This document shows positions 1 through 34,957 of a stretch of 38,116 bases of DNA, one piece after another (position 1 is the stretch's first letter; each line of letters starts with the position of its first letter). The notes under the pieces were generated by a model. That model saw nothing but the letters and a program-made list of their open reading frames with translations. It searched no databases and was not told where the DNA came from. The stretch is from positions 1-38,116 of IMG/VR virus record IMGVR_UViG_2802429226_000004; one strand, 5' to 3'. This stretch comes from a virus (lineage: Duplodnaviria; Heunggongvirae; Uroviricota; Caudoviricetes). Position numbers and translations under genes: made by a program.

Positions 1-1251
1 GTGCTTACCGATACAAAATTAAAAAACCTCAAGCCGCAGGACAAACTATACAAAGTCTCCGATCGTGACGGGCTGTATGTAGCTGTGCTTACGTCAGGTA
101 CGGTCTCGTTTCGCTATGACTACCGTATCAACGGTCGCCGCGAAACACTGGTAATCGGGCAGTATGGGCGTGACGGTATCAGCCTGGCAGAAGCGCGGGA
201 AGAACTGATTGCTGCAAAGAAGCTGCTTAAAGCAGGCCAGTCGCCGGCTGCGGCTAAACGTGACGGTATCAAAAAGATTCGTGGTGCCGAGACGTTTGCG
301 GTACATACCGACAGTTATATGAAACACGTCATCCTGGCTGACAGTACCCGCGCAATGAAGCAGGCGGTGATCGACCGTGACATACTTCCGGTTCTTGGCA
401 ACAAAATGATGGCTGAAATTACCACATCGATGGTTCGTGATTTGTGTGACCGGATTGTCGAACGCGGTGGTCGGGCAACAGCAGTACAGGCCAGGGAGAT
501 CATCAGCAGCGTATACCGTCACGCTAATGACCGTGGTCATGGTTTGTTTAATCCTGCGGCTGACATTAAACCTTCGTCTATCGCCATATTTAAACCAAGA
601 GAGCGAACACTGACACCAGAAGAAATTGGCCTGTTCTTCCGCACGCTGGATGCCATTGGTGCTATGGGCACTATGAAAATGGCTTTAAAGTTGGTGCTTA
701 TCACTATGGTTCGTAAAGGCGAATTCACCAATGCAACGTGGGATGAAATAGATTTTAAAAAATGGACATGGACAATTCCTTCAGACCGCATGAAAGGAAG
801 CCGGGCGCACGTTATTTACCTGCCTAAACAGGCACAGGATATATTGGTCGGGTTGCAGATGTGCGCTGGTGGAAGTGAATACCTGGTTCCTGGTCGTTAC
901 AATTTCCGGAAGCCATTATCTAATGCCGCACTGAACTCTCTGATCGACAGAACGGTGAAAATAATAAATGAAGATGGTGAGCATATTCAGGACTTCACCG
1001 TACACGATATGCGCCGTACAGCCAGTACGTTGTTGCATGAGGCTGGTTATCCTTCAGACTGGATTGAAAAGGCTCTGGCACATGAGCAGAAAGGTGTGCG
1101 CGCCGTATATAACAAAGCGGAATACGCCAGACAGCGCGCCTACATGTTGCAGCAGTGGGCCGATATGATTGATTCTTGGATTGACGGGGAGCATACGGAT
1201 CTGATTCCGTTCTCCCCGTCGAAGTTTGAGAAGTGGATGGCGGGGGAATAA
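1..1251 (+). CDS. int: tyrosine integrase (P4-type, N-terminal arm-binding domain); begins at the window edge with GTG, may be 5'-truncated by a codon or two
   Basis: 416-aa ORF; N-terminus LTDTKLKNLKPQDKLYKVSDRDGLYVAV...FRYDYRINGRRETLVIG matches the conserved N-domain of P4-family integrases; C-terminal HDMRRTASTLL...AHEQKGVRAVYNKAEY fits the R..H..R..Y catalytic region. Confidence 0.9.
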   Translation: MLTDTKLKNLKPQDKLYKVSDRDGLYVAVLTSGTVSFRYDYRINGRRETLVIGQYGRDGISLAEAREELIAAKKLLKAGQSPAAAKRDGIKKIRGAETFAVHTDSYMKHVILADSTRAMKQAVIDRDILPVLGNKMMAEITTSMVRDLCDRIVERGGRATAVQAREIISSVYRHANDRGHGLFNPAADIKPSSIAIFKPRERTLTPEEIGLFFRTLDAIGAMGTMKMALKLVLITMVRKGEFTNATWDEIDFKKWTWTIPSDRMKGSRAHVIYLPKQAQDILVGLQMCAGGSEYLVPGRYNFRKPLSNAALNSLIDRTVKIINEDGEHIQDFTVHDMRRTASTLLHEAGYPSDWIEKALAHEQKGVRAVYNKAEYARQRAYMLQQWADMIDSWIDGEHTDLIPFSPSKFEKWMAGE

Positions 1252-1449: not shown

Positions 1450-2096
1450 ACAGCACGCTCCCGCCCCTGGATGTCTGTTGGTGACAGCGGAGCATTGCTG
1501 AATGCATTTGTTAATCCGCCAATATCCAACGCGTATCCAGGGTGTAGTTGCACTGCCGGGTCTTCGCACTGATTACCCCAAACATCGAAGCCATGAGACG
1601 TCTGGCGGGCGAACAGTTCAATGCGAGAAACATCGCCTAATAATTGCACAAGTTTTTCACGAACGATATCTGGCTTTCTTGAATGCTCAAGCCGCGGTGC
1701 GGTAAATGACTGAACGATCCCTGCATTAATGCGCGTAGGTAGTTTTCCCTTTACCGCAAACAGGCAATCTTCACTATTGGCGCGAGTCATGTGTCCCATA
1801 CCCATAACCAGTTTATCTGGTTGTCGACTACCACATTTTATCCACGTGAAGCCCTTCATCGTCATCAGACGGAATCCCCAGGCTTCAACAACTTTTAGTG
1901 CTTCGAGTGGTTGTGTTGGCACCCACCACATGGCCAACAGACAGTTTTCATCGGCCAAATCCCACACAGGAAGGCGGCAGATATCCAGCACACTCATAAC
2001 CGGATATTTAAAACCGGCACCGCGATTACCATCTGCGGCTTTGTCCCGGTATACCCAGGGTGGATCTGCATAGATTAGTGTGTATTTCTTAGTCAT
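1446..2096 (-). CDS. MT-A70-like N6-adenine DNA methyltransferase (orphan, no cognate nuclease seen)
   Basis: 216-aa ORF with N-terminal YTLIYADPPWVY (DPPW catalytic motif of MT-A70/Dam-type adenine methyltransferases). Confidence 0.75.
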   Translation of the reverse strand: MTKKYTLIYADPPWVYRDKAADGNRGAGFKYPVMSVLDICRLPVWDLADENCLLAMWWVPTQPLEALKVVEAWGFRLMTMKGFTWIKCGSRQPDKLVMGMGHMTRANSEDCLFAVKGKLPTRINAGIVQSFTAPRLEHSRKPDIVREKLVQLLGDVSRIELFARQTSHGFDVWGNQCEDPAVQLHPGYALDIGGLTNAFSNAPLSPTDIQGRERAV

Positions 2097-2388
2097 AAAC
2101 CACCCCGCAACATCCTATACCGCTATAGTCTCCACGGCGAAGGCCGTTACCTTTTGTGATACATTGGTCCCTGCGAACCGCGATCCTTGCACGCTCAACA
2201 TCACCAGAAGCAACATCCATACACTGAAGCCAAAGGTGAGCGGCAATGCGGAACTGCCCTTTTTTCTCTCTTTCAATCGCGCGTTTTTCGATCTCTATCG
2301 CCGCAGGAGTAACGGCGACAATCTTTGACGGACTGCGCATTGAAACCTTGTTCATGTGATATTTTTCAAGTCGGCTTAACTTTCTCAC
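2089..2388 (-). CDS. hypothetical protein
   Basis: 99-aa minus-strand ORF; GTG start preceded by GAGGG; 3' end overlaps the methyltransferase start. Confidence 0.45.
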   Translation of the reverse strand: MRKLSRLEKYHMNKVSMRSPSKIVAVTPAAIEIEKRAIEREKKGQFRIAAHLWLQCMDVASGDVERARIAVRRDQCITKGNGLRRGDYSGIGCCGVVYD

Positions 2389-5196: not shown

Positions 5197-5275
5197 GTTA
5201 CCGTTGAGGTAATAATTATGCTTATTTGGTTTGGTGTCAATAGATATGAGTTAAAAAAATTACCCGTAAGGTAAT
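5197..5275 (-). promoter_or_regulatory. OL/PL-like region: two 17-bp inverted-repeat operators (5197-5213, 5259-5275) flanking a leftward promoter-like element
   Basis: GTTACCGTTGAGGTAAT and ATTACCCGTAAGGTAAT; the minus strand between them reads TTGACA-N17-AATTAT; directly upstream of the leftward operon. Confidence 0.5.
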
Positions 5276-5331: not shown

Positions 5332-5916
5332 TTATTGTTTGCTTTTTTCGTTCTGGTTGATGACAAATTCAATGTAACTTTCGATCTTTGCTTTCTCGGT
5401 TTCGGGTAACAATGCGTAGCGTGAGCGGTCATAGTTGATAGTCGCAGGGTCGTGCGGGTGAATCAGTAGTTCATATCCGTGACGCCCGAATGCGGATGCA
5501 ACATTCTCCAGGGTGGAAATGGAAACGCTGACCTCATTGTTTAACAGGCGGCTGATTGTCACCTGGGCGACGCCGGATGCGCGGTGAAGTTTTCCCTGTG
5601 TTGAAAGGTCGCGGCTTTCGCTCATCCAGCGTTCCAGGTTGTGAGCCGCCAGCTGACCTATATCGCTCGGGCCGACAGGCTGAAAACCCTCCTGAGAAAG
5701 CGAACGATCAATATCAAGCCAGTTACGGGGTTTATTGGCGGCAGCTTCAATTTTTCGTGCAACCTGGTCGCCGATAACCTTCTTGCCAAGAGCCCAGCGG
5801 TTTACCAGATTTGCCTGAGTTCCAAGTTTTTCTGCCATCCGCGTCTGAACACCATTGAATTCACGGTCGATCAAGTCGTTGAGATTTTGCCTGCGGACGT
5901 CCTGGATACTTTTCAT
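5332..5916 (-). CDS. phage repressor (CI functional analogue) with two XRE-type HTH regions and no S24 peptidase domain
   Basis: 194 aa; N-terminal ...QTRMAEKLGTQANLVNRWALGKK... and a second ...SGVAQVTISRLLNNEVSVSISTLENVASAFG... HTH-like segment; divergent from a Cro-like gene across an operator-rich intergenic region. Confidence 0.75.
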   Translation of the reverse strand: MKSIQDVRRQNLNDLIDREFNGVQTRMAEKLGTQANLVNRWALGKKVIGDQVARKIEAAANKPRNWLDIDRSLSQEGFQPVGPSDIGQLAAHNLERWMSESRDLSTQGKLHRASGVAQVTISRLLNNEVSVSISTLENVASAFGRHGYELLIHPHDPATINYDRSRYALLPETEKAKIESYIEFVINQNEKSKQ

Positions 5917-5970: not shown

Positions 5971-6035
5971 ATTACCCAACAGGTAAATGCACCTCATAGG
6001 TAACTATCCTTGATTTTTGTTACCTTATGGGTGAA
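5971..6035. promoter_or_regulatory. OR-like operator/promoter region between repressor and Cro-like gene (three 17-bp sites)
   Basis: ATTACCCAACAGGTAAA (5971-5987), TGCACCTCATAGGTAAC (5988-6004), GTTACCTTATGGGTGAA (6019-6035); TTGATT-N17-GAATAT promoter-like element overlaps the third site and faces the Cro-like gene. Confidence 0.5.
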
Positions 6036-6070: not shown

Positions 6071-6301
6071 ATGAGCGATAACGGACATTTCGATTTCAAA
6101 AAGCACTGGCTTGCACTTACTCCGGATGAGCGTGAAGCCTTCGCACAGGAAGCCGGAACGACGAGTCACTATATCCAGACTCACTTAACAGGTAAGCGCA
6201 AAATGCCAGGTAAAGTATTGATGAATGGGCTTTTTAAAGCCTGTAAAACAAGACAATGGCTGCGCTCAAAAGCAGAACTGGCATACTTCTTCTACTCATG
6301 A
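6071..6301 (+). CDS. Cro-like / YdaS-like small HTH regulator
   Basis: 76-aa ORF divergent from the repressor and followed by a terminator; LTPDEREAFAQEAGTTSHYIQTHLTGKR looks HTH-like. Confidence 0.55.
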   Translation: MSDNGHFDFKKHWLALTPDEREAFAQEAGTTSHYIQTHLTGKRKMPGKVLMNGLFKACKTRQWLRSKAELAYFFYS

Positions 6302-6322: not shown

Positions 6323-6348
6323 AGACCGCCATCCGGCGGTCTTTTCAT
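6323..6348 (+). terminator. rho-independent terminator after the Cro-like gene (tR1-like position)
   Basis: AGACCGCC-ATCC-GGCGGTCT hairpin followed by TTTTCAT. Confidence 0.6.
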
Positions 6349-6449: not shown

Positions 6450-6662
6450 TTGAAGATAGTAACCAGAATGGAGGCCGCAAAAGCCGGGTTAAATCGCTAT
6501 TTCACAGGAAAGCGGTGCCGTCACGGCCATCTCTCTGAAAGGTATGTTCTGAACGGAACATGTGTTGAATGTGCAATGAATAGCGCCAACCGCCATCGTA
6601 ATGAATTTGCTTGTGCACTAAAGAGTGCAAGAGGGGAAACCTATGGCAAGCAGCTGGATTAA
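6450..6662 (+). CDS. small zinc-ribbon protein (CII position); TTG start inferred
   Basis: 70 aa with C..H...C..C cluster (RCRHGH...CVECAM); AAGGGG 8 nt upstream of TTG at 6450. Confidence 0.4.
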   Translation: MKIVTRMEAAKAGLNRYFTGKRCRHGHLSERYVLNGTCVECAMNSANRHRNEFACALKSARGETYGKQLD

Positions 6663-8247: not shown

Positions 8248-8292
8248 CGTCTCAACAATTACCTATCAGGTAATAAAATATTCTAAACTCTA

Positions 8293-8682
8293 TTGATTTC
8301 GTGTCTTATGTGGTTTTTAATTACCTTAGAGGTAAATCATGAGAAAACAGATACAGGCTCTTGGTCGACTCAAAACAGGCCAGATGAACAAAACAGAATC
8401 TGCGTATTGCCAGCACCTTGGCTGCGTAAACGTGCAGGGGAAATCGCCTGGTATCGATTCGAGGGTATCAAGCTGCGGTTAGCTAATAACACGTTCTATA
8501 CGCCAGATTTCGCTGTGATGCTCGCCACCGGCGAGATGGAACTGCACGAAGTGAAAGGTTTCTGGACCGACGACGCCAGGGTGAAAACCAAAGTCGCCGC
8601 AGATCAGTATCCGTTCCGAATCATCGGGGTAACGGTTAAGCCAAAGAAAGCAGGTGGTGGCTGGAACATCGAAGAGTTCTGA
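8293..8682 (+). CDS. DUF1064-like phage protein; probable true start at ATG 8339 in a different frame (apparent frameshift)
   Basis: C-terminal LRKRAGEIAWYRFEGIKLRLANNTFYTPDFAVMLATGEMELHEVKG is DUF1064-like; the GAGG-ATG at 8339 opens MRKQIQALGRLKTGQMNKTESAY in the +1 frame relative to the rest of the gene. Confidence 0.5.
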   Translation: MISCLMWFLITLEVNHEKTDTGSWSTQNRPDEQNRICVLPAPWLRKRAGEIAWYRFEGIKLRLANNTFYTPDFAVMLATGEMELHEVKGFWTDDARVKTKVAADQYPFRIIGVTVKPKKAGGGWNIEEF

Positions 8683-9537: not shown

Positions 9538-10183
9538 TTACCAGGCACTGCGTGAGGCGGCGGAACGTGCAATTCCAGCAATGGAACGCCTGTTAATGTT
9601 GCCAGCTGATGATGATTTGTTAAGTGAACAGGAACTTAAAGATTATGGTGTGGATATTGATGCGCTCAACGCCTTCAAATTTCTGACCGGACCAGAAACC
9701 GTGCTGACGCTGCTGGATGAACGGGAAAGGAACCAGCAATACATCAAATCCCGCGACCAGGAGAACGAGGATATTGCGCTAACGGTAGGGAAACTGCGTG
9801 TTGAGCTTGAGGAAGCAAAATCAAAACTCAACGAGCAACGCGAGTATTACGAAGGTGTTATCTCGGATGGGAGTAAGCGTATTGCTGAACTGGAAGCACG
9901 GGAAATAAAACCAGCCAAAGGTGAAGTTCTTGTCGTTGTTTCTGGTTTTACTGGTTGCGGAAAAAGCGCCATTGCCGGGGAAATAGAAATCGCGATGAAG
10001 GCTATTGGTGTACCGGTTAAGTGGACTACTGGCGATGCAGAAAAGCGCATGACTGGCGCTGACTGGCTGACAGCAATTGAGATGTACAAACCAACTGTGC
10101 GCATTGTGGAAGTTAATGTGCCGCGCGTCGCTGGCATTCGCATCAAAGGAGACGCAGGAGAACAAAACGATGAAAAACCGTAA
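9524..10183 (+). CDS. Ead/Ea22-like protein
   Basis: 219 aa; coiled-coil middle and C-terminal VVVSGFTGCGKSAIAGEIEIAMKAIGVPVKW resemble Ead/Ea22-like prophage proteins; GTG start with AAGGAG. Confidence 0.6.
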   Translation: MSKINYQALREAAERAIPAMERLLMLPADDDLLSEQELKDYGVDIDALNAFKFLTGPETVLTLLDERERNQQYIKSRDQENEDIALTVGKLRVELEEAKSKLNEQREYYEGVISDGSKRIAELEAREIKPAKGEVLVVVSGFTGCGKSAIAGEIEIAMKAIGVPVKWTTGDAEKRMTGADWLTAIEMYKPTVRIVEVNVPRVAGIRIKGDAGEQNDEKP

Positions 10184-10346
10184 AGCAAAATTACTTCTTT
10201 TATCGCGTTCGACGGGGTACGAGAAGCTACCAATCAGCAATCACAAACGGGCGGTGATCGGCATGTTTGGTAGGGTGGTATTCGCATTTAACTATAAACC
10301 CACCGCGTCGCGGAACAGACGAGAGAAGGGGGACGCAGTGCGATGA
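10169..10346 (+). CDS. small basic protein, first of a tandem pair sharing the N-terminus MKNRKAK
   Basis: 59-aa ORF from ATG 10169 (AGGAG upstream); ATGA-coupled to the next ORF; speculative. Confidence 0.3.
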
Positions 10347-10534
10347 AAAACCGTAAAGCTAAGATGCTTATCTCCCGTGTATACAGACTTTGCTATCCCA
10401 GCCAGTGGTTGAGAGTTAGCAATCGTCGTGTGGTGTTGTTTTCATTTTCTGGAATTGCCAGAGAGGGAGTTCGAGATAAGGGCAGCACGGCGCAAAACCG
10501 CTGGAAAAACCACTTGCGCACTAAAGGAGACTGA
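10343..10534 (+). CDS. small basic protein, second of the tandem pair (MKNRKAKM...)
   Basis: 63-aa ORF; AAGGGGGA upstream; shares a 19-bp identical start region with the preceding ORF. Confidence 0.3.
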   Translation: MKNRKAKMLISRVYRLCYPSQWLRVSNRRVVLFSFSGIAREGVRDKGSTAQNRWKNHLRTKGD

Positions 10535-10535
10535 T

Positions 10536-10745
10536 ATGGCTATTGCCGCAAGTTACACCATGCATCTCTACTGTGATTGTCGCCAGTGTACAAATGGTAA
10601 ATATCAAACGCCAGACTTCGGTGAGTATATCGGTACGTCATGGGCTGGCTGTGCAAAAGAGGCACGTAAGGATGGCTGGCGAATAAGCAAAGACAAAACA
10701 CGTGCTTTTGCGCCAGGGCATAAAGTTTTAAGGATTAACAAATGA
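10536..10745 (+). CDS. small Cys-rich hypothetical protein
   Basis: 69 aa from ATG 10536, preceded by AAGGAG; MAIAASYTMHLYCDCRQCTNGK... Confidence 0.45.
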   Translation: MAIAASYTMHLYCDCRQCTNGKYQTPDFGEYIGTSWAGCAKEARKDGWRISKDKTRAFAPGHKVLRINK

Positions 10746-11482
10746 CCACTATTACCAGAGAAAACGCGGAAATTAAATCATTCATCGCTGGTTTCCTGAG
10801 CGACCCGGCGCACGATAACCAATCTACAGACAGCCTGCTTGCCAATGTGTTTCGTATCGCACAGGCATCGCTGGAAGCAGAACCAGTTGCTTATATTTTC
10901 AAGCATCCGGCCGGGAAATTATTCTGGGCTTTAACGGATGAAAGCAATAAAGAGCAAGCGGACGTTATTCCTGTTTATGCTGCCGCGCCTGCGTCGGTTG
11001 TGCCGGATAATGCATCAGAGCCTCTTGCTTATGCTTACAAAGAGCTTACGCCTGAGATTATGCGCAACCATTTAGCTGTATTCGAGCGATATGGAATAGC
11101 CCCAAACGATAGCTCTACCACAATTCAGGCACTGCGAATCGCGCTGGATGGCAATCATACAGAGCAAAACCTCGATATGGTAGACCATTTCGGTGACGCC
11201 ACCAAAAAGGCCATGCTTCATGGTGCCGAACCTGTAAGCCAAACTTACAAGTTGAACGAGCTATCTGGCAACTCTCCGGTAACTCCGGATGGTTGGATAA
11301 GCTGTAGTGAGCGAATGCCGGATGACGGGCAGTGGTGCGTAGTGAACACAGAATACGGGTATTACGTGCAATGCTGGTCTGAAGGTCAAGGATGGCTTGG
11401 TGATGATATCAGCATCCCTGAATGCGATGTAATCAATTGGATGCCGCTACCAGAACCGCCACAGGAGGTTAACCGTGGCTAA
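10742..11482 (+). CDS. hypothetical protein with C-terminal DUF551-like domain
   Basis: 246 aa; C-terminus WISCSERMPDDGQWCVVNTEYGYYVQCWSEGQGWLGDD...WMPLPEPP resembles DUF551. Confidence 0.6.
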   Translation: MTTITRENAEIKSFIAGFLSDPAHDNQSTDSLLANVFRIAQASLEAEPVAYIFKHPAGKLFWALTDESNKEQADVIPVYAAAPASVVPDNASEPLAYAYKELTPEIMRNHLAVFERYGIAPNDSSTTIQALRIALDGNHTEQNLDMVDHFGDATKKAMLHGAEPVSQTYKLNELSGNSPVTPDGWISCSERMPDDGQWCVVNTEYGYYVQCWSEGQGWLGDDISIPECDVINWMPLPEPPQEVNRG

Positions 11483-11756
11483 CCTGCAACTTGCCGTCAA
11501 AGGTGAATACTTCGATGCCATGATTCGCGGAGAGAAAACGGAAGAGTATCGCTTGTGTAATGACTACTGGAATAAGCGAATTATGTTACGCGAGTATGAC
11601 CGCCTGATTATCACAAAGGGATATCCGAAGCGCGACGACTCCAGTCGCAGAATTGATGTTCCGTATGGAGGATATGAAGTGAAAACAATCACACACCCCC
11701 ACTTCGGTGATAAACCGATAAAGGTTTACGCGATAAAGGTGAATATTGATGGCTAA
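11475..11756 (+). CDS. ASCH/DUF3850-like small protein
   Basis: 93 aa, GTG start after AGGAGG; LAVKGEYFDAMIRGEKTEEYR...RLIITKGYPK pattern resembles the ASCH-like fold. Confidence 0.5.
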   Translation: MANLQLAVKGEYFDAMIRGEKTEEYRLCNDYWNKRIMLREYDRLIITKGYPKRDDSSRRIDVPYGGYEVKTITHPHFGDKPIKVYAIKVNIDG

Positions 11757-12087
11757 ATCAGCAGCAGAGCGCAAAGCCGCTCAGAGAGCCAGACAAGCTG
11801 CATCTGGTGTGCGTAAGCTGGAGATTGTGCTTGATGCTCAGGAAATTGAAATGCTTGAGCGTAACTGTGCCGCGCGTCGCCCCGGGCGTGCGCCTTACGA
11901 ATTTGGTGAGTATATAGCGTTACTTATCCGCCAGGATGATGCACGCGTGCGCGGGCGTATAAAATCGATCAGCAGAAAACGTTGCGGTAAGTGCGGCGAG
12001 AGAGTTCCAGTTAATTCATGCCCGTGTAATGGTGACTCGCAATGCTGGGTGACTAAAGGCTGGCATGAAACGAAATTAATAGTGTGA
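11749..12087 (+). CDS. zinc-finger protein, candidate late-gene regulator
   Basis: 112 aa; C-terminal CGKCGERVPVNSCPCNGDSQC Cys4 cluster; last gene before a strong terminator and the terminase operon. Confidence 0.5.
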   Translation: MAKSAAERKAAQRARQAASGVRKLEIVLDAQEIEMLERNCAARRPGRAPYEFGEYIALLIRQDDARVRGRIKSISRKRCGKCGERVPVNSCPCNGDSQCWVTKGWHETKLIV

Positions 12088-12135
12088 CATGTCACGAGTA
12101 GATTATGCATGATGAATTTGATGTGTTTTGAATAC

Positions 12136-12162
12136 TGCCGCCAACTATGGCGGCTTTATTTT
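12136..12162 (+). terminator. rho-independent terminator between early/accessory genes and the late operon
   Basis: CTGCCGCC-AACTAT-GGCGGC hairpin followed by TTTATTTT. Confidence 0.7.
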
Positions 12163-12172
12163 GCATGGTACT

Positions 12173-12207
12173 ATTACCACAACGGTAACTATTACCACGG
12201 TGGTTAT
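12173..12207. promoter_or_regulatory. two tandem 17-bp inverted repeats abutting the terminase small subunit start
   Basis: ATTACCACAACGGTAAC (12173-12189) and ATTACCACGGTGGTTAT (12191-12207), same family as the OL/OR operators. Confidence 0.45.
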
Positions 12208-12802
12208 GATGCCTGCTGAACCTAAAACCTATAAACGCAAATCAACGCAATTTAAGCCACTAACAGCAATGCAGGAGGCTTATTGCCAGTCATACATCAA
12301 AACGCCTGAAAACCAGACTCAGGCAGCGATTAACGCAGGATTCTCCCCAAATACAGCGGCAGTTAAAGCCAGCGTCATGATGCGCGATGAACGCATTCAA
12401 AAACGGATTGCCGAGTTGATGGAAGAGCGCAACAAACGAATGCGCGTCAGTGCTGATTACGTTCTCATGCGCCTGGTGGAGATCGACCAGATGGACGTGA
12501 TCGATATCCTCAACGACGATGGGAGCCTTAAACCAATCCGTGAGTGGCCGAAAATCTGGCGCACTACGCTTAGTGGCTTTGATCTGTCATCGACCATCAT
12601 GAACATGAACGAGGATTCGATAGAGACAATCCTCAAAAAAATTAAATGGCCTGACAAGGTGAAGAACCTTGAGCTTATTGGTAAGCATGTTGATGTCAAC
12701 GCGTTCAAAGAACGTCTGGATGTTAATGTGAATGTGACAATTGCTGATCGCATAGCAGCAGCTAGGAAGCGACTCAAAGAACGTCAGGATGGTAATCAGT
12801 GA
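12208..12802 (+). CDS. terminase small subunit
   Basis: 198 aa from ATG 12208; directly precedes and overlaps the large subunit gene; the upstream TTG extension was rejected because it runs through the terminator hairpin. Confidence 0.65.
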
Positions 12803-14274
12803 CAGATACAGCGTTATCTCCTGAAGAGCAGTTAATCGAGGATATTGCAGGGTTCACTCACGATCCGCTTGGCTATGCCCTCTATGCGTTCCCTTGGGGG
12901 GAAGAGGGGACTGAACTGGCACATGCCACCGGTCCACGTCAGTGGCAGGCCGATGCGTTCCGAGAGATACGTGATCACCTGCAGAATCCAGAGACGCGCT
13001 ATCAGCCGCTTATGCTGGCACGCGCTTCTGGTCACGGTATTGGTAAATCCGCATTCATCTCAATGCTGATCAACTGGGGCATGTCCACTTGCGAGGATTG
13101 TAAGGTCGTGGTGACCGCCAACACCGACAACCAGCTACGAACGAAGACCTGGCCGGAAATTATCAAGTGGTCGAACCTTGCTATCACGAAAGACTGGTTT
13201 ACCTGTACCGCTACCGCGATGTACAGCAATGATCCTGGGCACGACAAGCGGTGGCGAGCTGACGCAATCCCCTGGTCTGAGCACAACACTGAGGCATTCG
13301 CCGGACTACACAACGAGCGCAAACGCATCATCGTGGTATTCGATGAAGCGTCGAACATTGCGGATCTGGTGTGGGAAGTTGCTGAGGGTGCGCTTACGGA
13401 CGAAGACACTGAGATTATCTGGGTGGCGTTCGGAAACCCTACACGTAATACCGGGCGTTTTCGCGAATGTTTCCGCAAATACAAACACCGCTGGAAAACT
13501 GCGCAGATTGACAGCCGGACGGTGGAAGGTACTAACAAACAGCAGTTGCAGAAATGGGTTGATGACTACGGGGAAGACAGCGACTTCGTTAAAATCCGTG
13601 TGCGCGGCATATTCCCTGATGCATCTGAATTGCAGTTTATCCCTACCGGTCTTACTGATGAGGCAATGAAACGGGTGGTAACCGCTGCGCAGGTGGCACA
13701 TGCTCCGGTGATAATCGGTGTTGACCCGGCATATTCAGGCGTTGATGACGCGGTGATATACCTGCGGCAGGGGCTGCATAGTAAGGTGCTATGGACTGGC
13801 AACAAGACCACCGACGATCTGATTATGGCGAAGCGCATCGCTGACTTTGAAGACCAGTATCAGGCTGACGCGGTATTCATCGACTTCGGTTACGGAACCG
13901 GTTTGAAGTCAATCGGTGATGGCTGGGGACGTACATGGCAACTTGTTCCGTTCGGTGGTGCGTCAACTGACCCTCAGATGCTCAACAAGCGCGGGGAGAT
14001 GTTCAACTCATGCAAGACATGGCTGAGGTTGGGCGGGATGCTGGATGACCAGGAAACAGCGGACGATCTGTCTGCGGCAGAGTACAAAGTTCGCGTGGAC
14101 GGTAAAATCGTTATCGAACCGAAGGAAGATATCAAAGAACGACTTGGGCGTTCACCTGGTAAAGGCGATGCGCTACTGCTGACGTTTGCGTTCCCTGTGT
14201 CAAAGCGTCTGCTAATTCCCGGGCAGCAGAACCAGCAAGGCAAGGCCATTACAGATTACGATCCCTATGCTTAA
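12799..14274 (+). CDS. terminase large subunit
   Basis: 491 aa; Walker-A-like GHGIGKS near the N-terminus, ...IVVFDEASNI... and C-terminal nuclease-like region typical of terminase large subunits; GTG start overlapping the small subunit stop. Confidence 0.9.
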   Translation: MTDTALSPEEQLIEDIAGFTHDPLGYALYAFPWGEEGTELAHATGPRQWQADAFREIRDHLQNPETRYQPLMLARASGHGIGKSAFISMLINWGMSTCEDCKVVVTANTDNQLRTKTWPEIIKWSNLAITKDWFTCTATAMYSNDPGHDKRWRADAIPWSEHNTEAFAGLHNERKRIIVVFDEASNIADLVWEVAEGALTDEDTEIIWVAFGNPTRNTGRFRECFRKYKHRWKTAQIDSRTVEGTNKQQLQKWVDDYGEDSDFVKIRVRGIFPDASELQFIPTGLTDEAMKRVVTAAQVAHAPVIIGVDPAYSGVDDAVIYLRQGLHSKVLWTGNKTTDDLIMAKRIADFEDQYQADAVFIDFGYGTGLKSIGDGWGRTWQLVPFGGASTDPQMLNKRGEMFNSCKTWLRLGGMLDDQETADDLSAAEYKVRVDGKIVIEPKEDIKERLGRSPGKGDALLLTFAFPVSKRLLIPGQQNQQGKAITDYDPYA

Positions 14275-14316: not shown

Positions 14317-14350
14317 TAAAACAAAGCCAGCTCGTAGGCTGGCTGTTTGT
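14317..14350. terminator. bidirectional rho-independent terminator between the terminase gene and the reverse-strand moron
   Basis: AGCCAGC-TCGTAG-GCTGGCT hairpin with T-rich tracts on both strands. Confidence 0.6.
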
Positions 14351-14364
14351 GACATGTCACGGTG

Positions 14365-14736
14365 TTATTGCTCGCTTAACTTCTGCTTCAGCAAGTAACC
14401 TTCAAGCATCCAGATTTTGTTTACAGCATTCTGCCGGGCAATCTTCCGACCAATTTCTGCATCAAAGTTTTCCGGGCTTGCACAGGCGCTCTCTCCGGTG
14501 ACGGTGAAGCCGTTGCGCAGCACCAGGACGCAGAACGTCAGCAGAGAAAGTGATTCGTGCGGCTGGTAGTTTACCTCTCCGCCAGTATGTTTCGCTTTTA
14601 TGGCTTTGCCAAAGGCACCATCCTCTGCTGTGAAATATGCCTCCTGAGCAATAATGCTTTCGATATGGTCTGGCGTAACGCGCGGAGCAGTTTTGCCTTT
14701 CTCAACGATTTCTTTTTCGATTTGCTGGTCGTTCAT
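14365..14736 (-). CDS. Gp49-like (N4 gp49 / Sf6 gp66 family) protein; moron
   Basis: 123-aa minus-strand ORF embedded in a plus-strand late operon; family assignment is tentative, from memory. Confidence 0.5.
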   Translation of the reverse strand: MNDQQIEKEIVEKGKTAPRVTPDHIESIIAQEAYFTAEDGAFGKAIKAKHTGGEVNYQPHESLSLLTFCVLVLRNGFTVTGESACASPENFDAEIGRKIARQNAVNKIWMLEGYLLKQKLSEQ

Positions 14737-14934: not shown

Positions 14935-15011
14935 TGGCGTGGCATGCAGGATTCGAACCTGCGACCAACCGCTTAGAAGGCGGTTGCTCTGTCCAGCTGA
15001 GCTAATGCCAC
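14935..15011 (-). tRNA. tRNA-Arg (anticodon UCU)
   Basis: Hand-folded 77-nt cloverleaf on the minus strand: acceptor GUGGCAU/AUGCCAC, D-arm GCUC/GAGC, anticodon stem ACCGC/GCGGU with loop CUUCUAA, T-arm GCAGG-UUCGAAU-CCUGC, discriminator G and encoded CCA. Confidence 0.85.
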
Positions 15012-15332: not shown

Positions 15333-15411
15333 CTTACCTGAAAGGTAATAATTAGTGCGTTAAATGTCAAGTATCTACGATAAATAAATCACATGTGGTT
15401 AAATTGGTAAT
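15333..15411 (+). promoter_or_regulatory. late-operon control region: operator-like 17-mer plus ACATGTGGTT-N5-GGTAAT element upstream of the portal operon
   Basis: CTTACCTGAAAGGTAAT at 15333-15349; ACATGTGGTT at 15391-15400; GGTAATAAT at 15406-15414. Confidence 0.4.
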
Positions 15412-19830: not shown

Positions 19831-20166
19831 ATGTCAGGTGAGAAACCAAGATACCGCGTTCTGCGCCTCTCTCATATCCATAACACTCTGTGGCCGGAGG
19901 GGGCAGAAATCGAATACGAAGGTGAGCCTGGTAGCGCACTGGAACCTGTTAACGATGCAGCCAGACAGGCAAAAGCAAAGGTTGCAGGAAAGGTGACTAT
20001 GGCAGCAACCAGCACCAAAATCATCAACGATGTGTCAGATGATGGTGAACTGGATAAGCTCCGTGAAGAGTACGAATTGCTCTTTAACGAGAAGCCACAC
20101 CATAACGCCAAAGCCGAAACGCTCCGCGAGAAGATCGCAGATAAGCGTAAAGAACTGGGCGTGTAA
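19831..20166 (+). CDS. hypothetical virion-module protein
   Basis: 112 aa from ATG 19831 with AAGGTG RBS. Confidence 0.45.
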   Translation: MSGEKPRYRVLRLSHIHNTLWPEGAEIEYEGEPGSALEPVNDAARQAKAKVAGKVTMAATSTKIINDVSDDGELDKLREEYELLFNEKPHHNAKAETLREKIADKRKELGV

Positions 20167-31612: not shown

Positions 31613-31909
31613 ATGCAAGCTATAGGATTCATTGTTTATATCGTCGTTGGTCTTTTTCAGTTGGCAGCAATTATGGCTGGGCTTGAATCATGGTGGGGAT
31701 TGCACTGGATAATTGCAGCCCCCATTGCTTTCATCGTGAGCTATATTCCATTTGTTGGAGCGATTGTTGGTATGGTTGGCGCTGTGGATGTATGGCGGTG
31801 GGAGTGGTGGCAGGCTGGCCTTCTCTTCTTTGGTGGGATCATCTTTGCTATTGTCTGCGGTGGAATGTCATCATTTTTCGAATGGCTATCATTCAGAAAA
31901 GGTACGTGA
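31613..31909 (+). CDS. small integral membrane protein (98 aa, Trp-rich)
   Basis: AGGTGA RBS; three hydrophobic segments (..IVYIVVGLFQLAAIMAGL.., ..IIAAPIAFIVSYIPFVGAIVGMVGAV.., ..LLFFGGIIFAIVCGG..); followed by palindrome and terminator. Confidence 0.55.
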   Translation: MQAIGFIVYIVVGLFQLAAIMAGLESWWGLHWIIAAPIAFIVSYIPFVGAIVGMVGAVDVWRWEWWQAGLLFFGGIIFAIVCGGMSSFFEWLSFRKGT

Positions 31910-31917
31910 CATGTCAC

Positions 31918-31944
31918 AGGCCGCTTTCGCGGCCTTTTCTTTAT
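31918..31944 (+). terminator. rho-independent terminator after the membrane protein genes
   Basis: AGGCCGC-TTTC-GCGGCCT hairpin followed by TTTCTTTAT. Confidence 0.65.
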
Positions 31945-32213
31945 GTGGTTTGTTTTCGTAATTGTTCGGCACAATAGTCGAGATGTGTTTGCAGATCCTG
32001 CATAGACATCTGTGAGCTGGTGACGTAGTTAATCAGTGCAGTCAGTTCGGCAAGTGGGCCATCGACATTAAATCCATCCTTATCGAGATCCCGGAGTAAT
32101 TTCATCAAGTGCGATCCCTCCACCAGTGACCTGACGCCTCCCGGCGTGTGAATCCTTTCGGTAAATCCGTCTTCCAGTGGATAGTGATACTGCTGCATCT
32201 TAATCTTCTCCAT
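31941..32213 (-). CDS. hypothetical protein (90 aa), reverse-strand moron
   Basis: Minus-strand ORF with its own upstream intergenic region; no family recognised. Confidence 0.5.
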   Translation of the reverse strand: MEKIKMQQYHYPLEDGFTERIHTPGGVRSLVEGSHLMKLLRDLDKDGFNVDGPLAELTALINYVTSSQMSMQDLQTHLDYCAEQLRKQTT

Positions 32214-32274
32214 GCAATAACTGTATATTTATACAGTAGCAAATAATTTGTTTGCTATCCAGCACGTTTTGCAA

Positions 32275-32341
32275 ATTACCTGAAAGGTAATATCTATTCA
32301 TATTCACAGTCTTTCTATCCATATGTGGTTTTTCAGGTAAT
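32275..32341 (+). promoter_or_regulatory. tailspike control region: operator-like 17-mer plus ATATGTGGTT-N5-GGTAAT element
   Basis: ATTACCTGAAAGGTAAT at 32275-32291; ATATGTGGTT at 32321-32330; GGTAAT at 32336-32341. Confidence 0.4.
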
Positions 32342-34815: not shown

Positions 34816-34957
34816 TTTCATAAAAAGGTAAAAAAATTAAATATTATTATTTGTTTGAACCTGGTTATAGAAGTAATTATTTTAAGGTAACATTAAACCT
34901 TATGTGGTTTGTTGTGTATGATAGTCTGTAAGTGAAGAGGTTCGATATGTACAGAAA

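Follow-up and report, generated by a model that had tools for sequence, protein, structure and literature searches.

The junction at which the early-right operon meets the packaging genes was analyzed in a 38,116-nucleotide stretch of viral DNA (IMG/VR record IMGVR_UViG_2802429226_000004, positions 1 to 38,116; hereafter the window), which is a prophage of the epsilon15-like (Uetakevirus) group of temperate podophages. At this boundary, the gene of a small Cys-containing protein, the so-called zinc-finger protein, is followed by a palindrome, a terminator and two 17-bp inverted repeats, designated O1 and O2, that abut the gene of the small terminase subunit (terS). The best explanation for this 460-bp stretch is a boundary served by two independent regulatory systems. 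Sequence comparisons indicate that O1 and O2 are most likely ordinary prophage-repressor operators over a small terminase promoter, while the zinc-finger protein would act separately, at palindromes of its own that mark the borders of transcription units. This combined reading, i.e., a repressor-gated terminase promoter behind an insulating terminator together with a separately acting zinc-finger protein, is given a probability of approximately 55%. The gene, the palindrome, the terminator and the two repeats were all found where the initial annotation of this DNA had placed them, and the elements of the boundary are as follows:

11749..12087, plus strand: zinc-finger gene, last gene of the early-right operon; 112 residues, epsilon15 gp49 / N15 gp46 family, phrog_536
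12084..12095: palindrome P1, GTGACATGTCAC, perfect over 12 bp and overlapping the TGA stop codon of the zinc-finger gene
12096..12136, plus strand: remnant of a small open reading frame (ORF), which is intact (~70 residues) in a sister class of phages
12137..12162, plus strand: intrinsic terminator T1, GCCGCCAACTATGGCGGC followed by TTTATTTT, closing the early-right operon
12166..12174, plus strand: predicted extended -10 element TGgTACTAT of the terminase operon, with a presumed transcription start at ~12181-12183, inside O1
12173..12189: operator O1, ATTACC-ACAAC-GGTAAC, ATTACCACAACGGTAAC
12191..12207: operator O2, ATTACC-ACGGT-GGTTAT, ATTACCACGGTGGTTAT, with one mismatch to the consensus
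12209..12802, plus strand: terS, with an alternative start at 12206; Terminase_2 match in Pfam (E 1e-29)

Region 11400-12900 of the window exhibits 95-98% identity to the E. coli O157 typing phages 9 and 10 and to phages phiV10, TL-2011b, PAS61 and ZX5, Salmonella phage epsilon15 being a more distant relative of this region; late control is not addressed in the ZX5 paper. O1 and O2 represent tandem copies of a genus-wide operator, ATTACC-N5-GGTAAT, the core of which (TTACC-N5-GGTAA) is present in eight exact copies in the window compared to 0.02 expected, every copy being intergenic:

5197..5275: operator pair (cores 5198 and 5260, 62 bp apart) bracketing a PL-like promoter
5971..5987: operator (core 5972) in the divergent promoter region of the repressor and cro genes
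8258..8336: operator pair (cores 8259 and 8321, 62 bp apart) bracketing a TTGATT-17-TTTAAT promoter before a resolvase-like gene
12174: core of O1 before terS, with O2 as its one-mismatch neighbour
15333..15349: operator (core 15334) before the portal/head gene block; epsilon15 counterpart at 2931-2947
32275..32291: operator (core 32276) between a LexA-boxed ant-like gene and the tailspike gene; epsilon15 counterpart at 19895-19911

Homologous sites are marked as protein_bind 'repressor' in the epsilon15 GenBank record, including the equivalent of O1 at 12..27 just before terS, and the description of the repeats as operator-like in the initial annotation is thereby substantiated. A repeat search also detected the O1/O2 region as a direct repeat, ACTATTACCAC, occurring twice with an 18-bp period. 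The second tandem site, with this same period, is kept in most of the epsilon15-type lineages compared and is not recognisable in Klebsiella locus L007, while tandem adjacent operators are furthermore found at PR in epsilon15-type immunity regions. O2 spans the Shine-Dalgarno sequence of terS, GGTGG, and reaches both terS start codons, at 12206 and 12209. A start of terS at TTG 12128, as annotated for PAT1, was rejected as an open-frame artefact, as conservation begins at the ATG and the sequence upstream of it is replaced in relatives.

Measured from start to start, the operators are spaced by exactly 62 bp in both promoter-bracketing pairs, by 18 bp before terS and by 17 bp in the PR pair of epsilon15-type immunity regions; these differing spacings suggest that the repressor tetramer binds in two geometries.

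O1 and O2 are presumably bound by the prophage repressor, which is of the SPC32H Rep type and is encoded as follows:

5332..5916, minus strand: prophage repressor gene (PDB 5D50 match; HTH_3)

The match to SPC32H Rep (PDB 5D50) has an E-value of 3.5e-42 over residues 1-190, and the window repressor is only ~43% identical to that of epsilon15. According to PMC9638917, a later paper that summarises the SPC32H work, Rep binds palindromic sites as a tetramer, and a single tetramer is enough for repression. The co-occurrence of operator and repressor was surveyed in 107 related loci. Each of the 54 that have a repressor homologue possesses at least two operators, whereas operators were found in none of the 29 loci that have the zinc-finger gene without a repressor homologue; the remaining 24 loci, which bear operators and were flagged as lacking Rep, are epsilon15-type and mostly contigs that end before the immunity region. 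The operator therefore follows the immunity system and not the zinc-finger gene. This distribution, together with the presence of the same operator at PL, at PR and ahead of four other gene blocks, speaks against the repeats being a private target of the zinc-finger gene product.

A near-perfect LexA box, CTGTATATTTATACAG, is located at 32223-32238, upstream of a 90-residue gene on the minus strand (31941-32213). The product of this gene has a match to phrog_450 and a weak match to an anti-repressor PHROG; judged by these features, the gene, which is set against the late genes, would be the SOS-controlled antirepressor expected for this phage type.

As regards the terminator, the T1 stem (12137-12154) consists of seven pairs, six of them G-C, followed by the run given above. 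The hairpin is present in the minimum free energy and centroid folds alike, and the homologous stem-loop of epsilon15 is annotated as a rho-independent terminator in its record, in line with T1 closing the early-right operon and with the strong terminator noted in the initial annotation. The 41-nt gap between P1 and T1 is due to the remnant of the ~70-residue ORF, whose shared 3' end, GATGAATTTGATG..TTTGAATACTGCCGCC, is still present in the window; the distance from palindrome to operator amounts to 276 nt in L013-type loci as opposed to 90 nt in the window. A promoter-like match (9 of 12 positions) at 12084-12113 lies upstream of T1, within an interval that is the deleted-ORF remnant and varies among relatives, and such matches occur at chance rate.

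Initiation of transcription directly downstream of T1 is plausible. To analyze this region, the 110 nt preceding terS were aligned for nine loci, i.e., the window, epsilon15, PAT1 and prophages of Pseudocitrobacter, Citrobacter (two), Superficieibacter, Erwinia dacicola and Klebsiella (the prophage loci being L094, L095, L096, L097, L099 and, for Klebsiella, L007), while a further Klebsiella locus, L100, is identical to the window in this region. The sequence TGnTAnTAT is found in a fixed register in all nine loci, which represent several diverged lineages, and its last two bases are the first two of O1. It persists even in lineages that have unrelated sequence further upstream and a umuD-like gene in place of the terminator. 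Elsewhere in the window, operators are not flanked by TGnTAnTAT on the left, and it is therefore not part of the operator itself. We infer that this element represents an extended -10 promoter without a -35 element, from which transcription would start inside O1 and produce a leader of ~25 nt, its ribosome-binding site lying under O2. It is the position of this conserved element, immediately after T1, that makes initiation at this point plausible.

In Klebsiella (L007, 3279-3360) and in Pseudocitrobacter and Citrobacter (L094 and L095, ~10336-10420), the slot following the palindrome is occupied by a umuD-like gene with its own LexA-boxed promoter. As there is no terminator between this gene and terS, SOS-driven transcription would enter the repressor-bound operators.

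Taken together, the proposed course of events would be as follows. T1 would halt early-right transcription, such that the terminase operon forms a transcription unit of its own, driven by the weak extended -10 element (12166-12174) that directly follows T1 and lacks a -35 element. In the lysogen, one repressor tetramer on O1 and O2 would silence terS and terL, with O1 covering the start region and O2 covering the ribosome-binding site and start codon. Removal of Rep by the LexA-controlled antirepressor would then open the terS promoter together with the other operator-linked promoters, a step that would require neither Q nor N nor a dedicated late activator. The zinc-finger protein, in turn, would modulate read-through or block transcription at unit boundaries, from three palindromes, and would not activate the terS promoter. 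The initial annotation had reported no lambda Q or N homologue, and the ORFs scanned against Pfam and PHROGs included none. Likewise, a scan of the whole window at the Rfam gathering thresholds returned one tRNA and nothing else, and an E-value scan of 10000-12400 returned only a sub-threshold rseX match and no RNA-based put-like element.

The zinc-finger ORF begins with ATG (with TTG at 11746 as an alternative) and overlaps the upstream ASCH-domain gene at the latter's stop codon. The five Cys residues of the product are situated between residues 79 and 99, in the C-terminal part, CGKCGERVPVNSCPCNGDSQCW, with the spacing CxxC-N8-CxC-N5-C. Among 55 homologues, C79 and C82 are invariant, C99 is at least 90% conserved and one further Cys is located in between; C91 is also invariant in the ten closest homologues. 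An AlphaFold2 model built from the 55-sequence alignment has a mean pLDDT (predicted local distance difference test) of 90.8, and its N-terminal half adopts a strand-helix-helix arrangement, i.e., a ribbon-helix-helix (RHH) fold. Weak sequence matches to RHH families were returned as well (NCBIfam YbfE, E 0.045; RHH_5 in two and RHH_1 in one of the 55 members). The modelled protein is thus an RHH DNA-binding protein with a C-terminal Cys cluster. A Pfam scan of the protein returned a sub-threshold DUF4457 match alone, and PHROGs labels the family 'transcriptional regulator'.

The resemblance to Ogr/Delta-type late activators that the initial annotation had seen in this architecture does not hold. 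Proteins of the Ogr/Delta type have 70 to 90 residues and carry a Cys4 finger in their N-terminal half. P2 Ogr and P4 Delta share with the window protein the small size and a Cys4-type cluster, and the palindrome likewise has a TGT...ACA outline, but the Cys residues of the window protein are found at positions 79-99 of 112, with a different spacing, and follow an RHH domain. Ogr_Delta was matched neither in the scan of the protein itself nor among the 25 families listed, of 42, for the 55 members, each of the other families matching at most one member; zf-dskA_traR is also absent from these 25 families.

A marginal resemblance of the family profile to TraR and YbiI extends over the long helix and Cys cluster of the C-terminal half (hmmsearch E 0.03; hhalign probability 53%). 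Like the TraR/DksA binders of RNA polymerase, the phage protein has a long helix followed by CxxCG..P......G...C, and unlike them it has no second CxxC. Membership of the TraR family is not supported, given the below-significance similarity, the missing second CxxC (CxxC-N17-19-CxxC) and the lack of a zf-dskA_traR match among the families listed, while a Foldseek search with the model did not retrieve TraR. The resemblance is a lead only.

A site for the zinc-finger protein is suggested by the palindrome GTGAC-NN-GTCAC, of which the window has three copies compared to 0.04 expected, at the same three homologous places as in epsilon15. In addition to P1, these are:

14325..14360, minus strand: unit with palindrome P2 (14349-14360); the terminator of gene 14365-14736 begins 4 nt later
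31906..31940, plus strand: unit with palindrome P3 (31906-31917), which overlaps the stop codon of ORF 31613-31909; the terminator begins 0 nt later

The palindrome is located within 25 nt of the zinc-finger gene stop codon in 97 of 105 loci. Among species-level prophages, whose proteins are 50-82% identical, it is found at the gene end in 20 of 27 under strict criteria, and in 23 of 27 once two sites with one mismatch and one ORF extension are included. Its register relative to the stop codon varies, as do the central 2 bp, the 5-bp arms are invariant and the downstream neighbours are unrelated. Furthermore, the palindrome follows the homologue in N15 (GTGACTGGTCAC after gp46), ZF40 and Chlobot; in Vibrio phage K308 (31% identity of the homologue), GTGACRCGTCAC is present three times, and a start codon, in one case that of terS, follows two of these sites at a distance of exactly 19 nt, while a P2-like Yersinia phage has two palindrome sites in its accessory region. 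Invariant arms, a free centre and a tie to the gene constitute the pattern of a dimeric DNA-binding protein and its operator, and the palindrome is, on this comparative evidence, likely to be the cognate site of the zinc-finger protein. All three window palindromes precede an intrinsic terminator in its working direction, at 41 nt (P1), 4 nt (P2) and 0 nt (P3), and six epsilon15-type loci besides the window share the 4-nt spacing of P2.

In a Xenorhabdus prophage (L116), a second, truncated 3' end of the zinc-finger gene is found together with a palindrome at ~10930-10975, 636 nt downstream of the full gene. The palindrome was also considered as an RNA antiterminator hairpin, which was rejected since its arms are sequence-invariant and not covarying, and do not overlap the terminator stems.

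Several observations weigh against the reading of a repressor-gated terminase promoter with a separate boundary protein. An extended -10 element lacking a -35 may be too weak to act alone, and Klebsiella-type relatives have a LexA-controlled promoter directed towards terS with no intervening terminator, so that read-through may contribute. The members of the genus all share the TTACC/GGTAA half-sites although their repressors are just 42-73% identical; the operator thus stays constant across diverged repressors, and a Cro-like protein could use sites of the O1/O2 type. With respect to the palindromes, pairing with a terminator was seen in 18 of the 45 examined, none of which is flanked on both sides, and is strong in epsilon15-like phages though not universal outside them; in N15, Chlobot and Vibrio K308, the palindrome is instead found 9-19 nt before a start codon.

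These start-codon sites, which occur in several phages, are in line with a possible, if unlikely, alternative in which the zinc-finger protein simply acts locally, as a repressor or roadblock at the gene-end palindrome, limits the adjacent variable cargo gene and has nothing to do with the late genes. The palindrome indeed marks the edge of a variable slot, occupied by the 70-residue ORF, the LexA-controlled umuD-like gene, N15 gp47 or other genes, and it immediately precedes the -35 element of the LexA-boxed promoter in Klebsiella-type loci. Such a role would leave the two further terminator-adjacent copies, far from the gene, unexplained, and in the window the slot is empty and the site nonetheless perfectly conserved. 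A further alternative is antitermination, for which the palindrome-bound protein would move to passing RNA polymerase by means of a TraR/DksA-like zinc module and let it read through the adjacent terminators, and the late genes would be an extension of the early-right transcript. The three palindrome-terminator pairs of the window, the similarity to TraR and YbiI and the absence of any other antiterminator are consistent with this idea, which is nevertheless judged improbable: the similarity is below significance, many homologues have the palindrome without a terminator, the operons past the terminators have operator-associated promoter regions of their own, and read-through at one of the pairs, that of a minus-strand gene, would give antisense terL RNA. 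A more general and rather speculative version holds that the epsilon15 gp49 / N15 gp46 family is a so far undescribed site-loaded factor, the RHH domain of which sits on matS-like palindromes upstream of terminators while a TraR-like module alters termination by RNA polymerase. If true, such a factor would be the missing switch that joins or separates early and late units in phages without Q, and the arms shared with matS would allow cross-talk with the host MatP/Ter system.

The initial annotation had suggested that late transcription may be activator-driven. In the corresponding model, the zinc-finger protein would be an Ogr/Delta-like activator that, bound to the paired repeats, turns on a late promoter past the terminator. 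What persists of this proposal is that neither Q nor N was found and that initiation after T1 is plausible. In two lineages without an annotated Q, moreover, no other early gene separates the zinc-finger gene from the late genes, namely from terS in the epsilon15-like phages and from the holin/terminase block in Vibrio K308, and the PHROGs label would fit. The repeats, however, are the operator shared with PL and PR, not a private target, and are absent from loci that have the gene without Rep. Zinc-finger homologues also coexist with the Q-like 'late transcription activator' gp40 in N15, with the Q-like protein gp25 in ZF40 and, in the P2-like Yersinia phage, with a small regulator encoded after gpD, where Ogr is canonically found, and the family is therefore no general substitute for a late regulator. 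The distance from palindrome to terS, which is ~110 nt in the window, ~300 nt in L013-type and ~460 nt in Klebsiella-type loci, fits poorly with an activator at a fixed position, and P2 and P3 are not upstream of late promoters. Given also the RHH fold and the family scans described above, a late-activator role is very unlikely. Least credible of all is a role of the repeats as a packaging recognition site for the small terminase, comparable to the cosB R sites upstream of lambda Nu1. The repeats do lie immediately upstream of terS, and several related public records open within or next to this intergenic region, but the motif is also present at PL, PR and four other intergenic sites, while the record starts vary between records and look arbitrary.

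The preferred reading, a terminase promoter gated by the prophage repressor, has parallels in known systems. On the operator side, it is an ordinary case of the SPC32H/epsilon15 Rep system, already annotated in epsilon15: the window shares with that Rep-Ant system the Rep homologue, operators at the same seven kinds of position, including that before terS, and a LexA-boxed small ant-like gene. It differs in having an E. coli-type immunity region with the diverged repressor described above, and the action of Rep on the terS pair is a prediction. The C1 operators of phage P1 and the stoperators bound by gp71 of mycobacteriophage L5 are further cases in which one repressor has many sites over a genome. 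As in those phages, the sites are scattered and include some before late or structural genes, so late genes would be silenced directly and not only via a cascade. L5 stoperators are asymmetric and orientation-dependent, whereas the window sites are symmetric 17-mers, fewer in number (~9), at promoters and ribosome-binding sites.

The palindrome of the zinc-finger protein, for its part, resembles the host matS site, which is a 13-bp GTGAC-RNY-GTCAC sequence (PMC3116907, PMC3603311). The arms are identical, but the phage palindrome has 12 bp and a spacer of 2 bp compared to 3 bp in matS. Homology of the two proteins was rejected at the sequence level (hhalign probability 0.5%), and where MatP has a coiled coil the phage protein has its Cys cluster.

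The wider gene map of the window is that of a temperate phage and is outlined below:

1-1251: integrase gene, followed by the leftward early block
6071-6301: cro-like gene, then the replication genes and several small early genes
12209-12802 (terS), then terL, portal/head genes, and tailspike and lysis genes: order of the late genes

Several further features were observed. A recurrent box, (C)AT(A/T)TGTGGTT, is present at 8308-8315, 15393-15400, 32323-32330 and 34902-34909, and also at 31943-31950. Ahead of the resolvase-like, portal and tailspike genes it follows the operators at a distance of 47-59 nt, and a copy likewise precedes the lysis genes; none is found before terS. The box is kept at the same four places in epsilon15 and other members of the genus, inside invariant blocks such as AAATAAATCATATGTGGTTAAATTGGTAATAATTTAAT, and could be part of middle/late promoters or an activator site. 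For an activator site in fixed register, the distance between the CATATGTGGTT box and the candidate -10 elements would be expected to be constant, and it differs between sites. Another candidate regulator of later genes is a 99-residue PerC-family transcriptional activator encoded in the early-left operon (2089-2388, minus strand; Pfam PerC 30.1 bits compared to a cut-off of 22.6; phrog_868 'transcriptional activator').

A tRNA-Arg(TCT) gene (14935-15011, minus strand) is encoded opposite to the late-gene strand, in the interval that separates terL from the portal block, and adjoins the Phage_gp49_66 family gene at 14365-14736. The DUF1064/Holliday-junction-resolvase-like gene (8293-8682 and 8339-8482) appears frameshifted, its N-terminal part, MRKQIQALGRLKTGQMNKTE..., and its C-terminal catalytic part being in different frames; in TL-2011b, a 54-residue fragment alone is annotated. 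A 29-nt direct repeat (10168-10196 and 10341-10369, 173 bp apart) opens two small paralogous ORFs (MKNRKAK...), and the ~350-nt stretch that holds it returned no family match. A second small Cys-rich protein of 70 residues (6450-6662, plus strand; phrog_1081, function unknown) is encoded directly after the cro-proximal terminator at 6323-6342.

In this group of phages, a lambda-like Q cascade would have been expected, and the repressor-gated view takes its place. The packaging, head, tailspike and middle promoter regions appear to be occupied directly by the repressor, such that induction would open all of these at once. Furthermore, a widespread family of small proteins, annotated merely as 'hypothetical' or 'transcriptional regulator', gains a concrete predicted DNA site, and the predicted palindrome provides an entry point to the role of these proteins in N15-like, P2-like, lambdoid, epsilon15-like and Vibrio phages.

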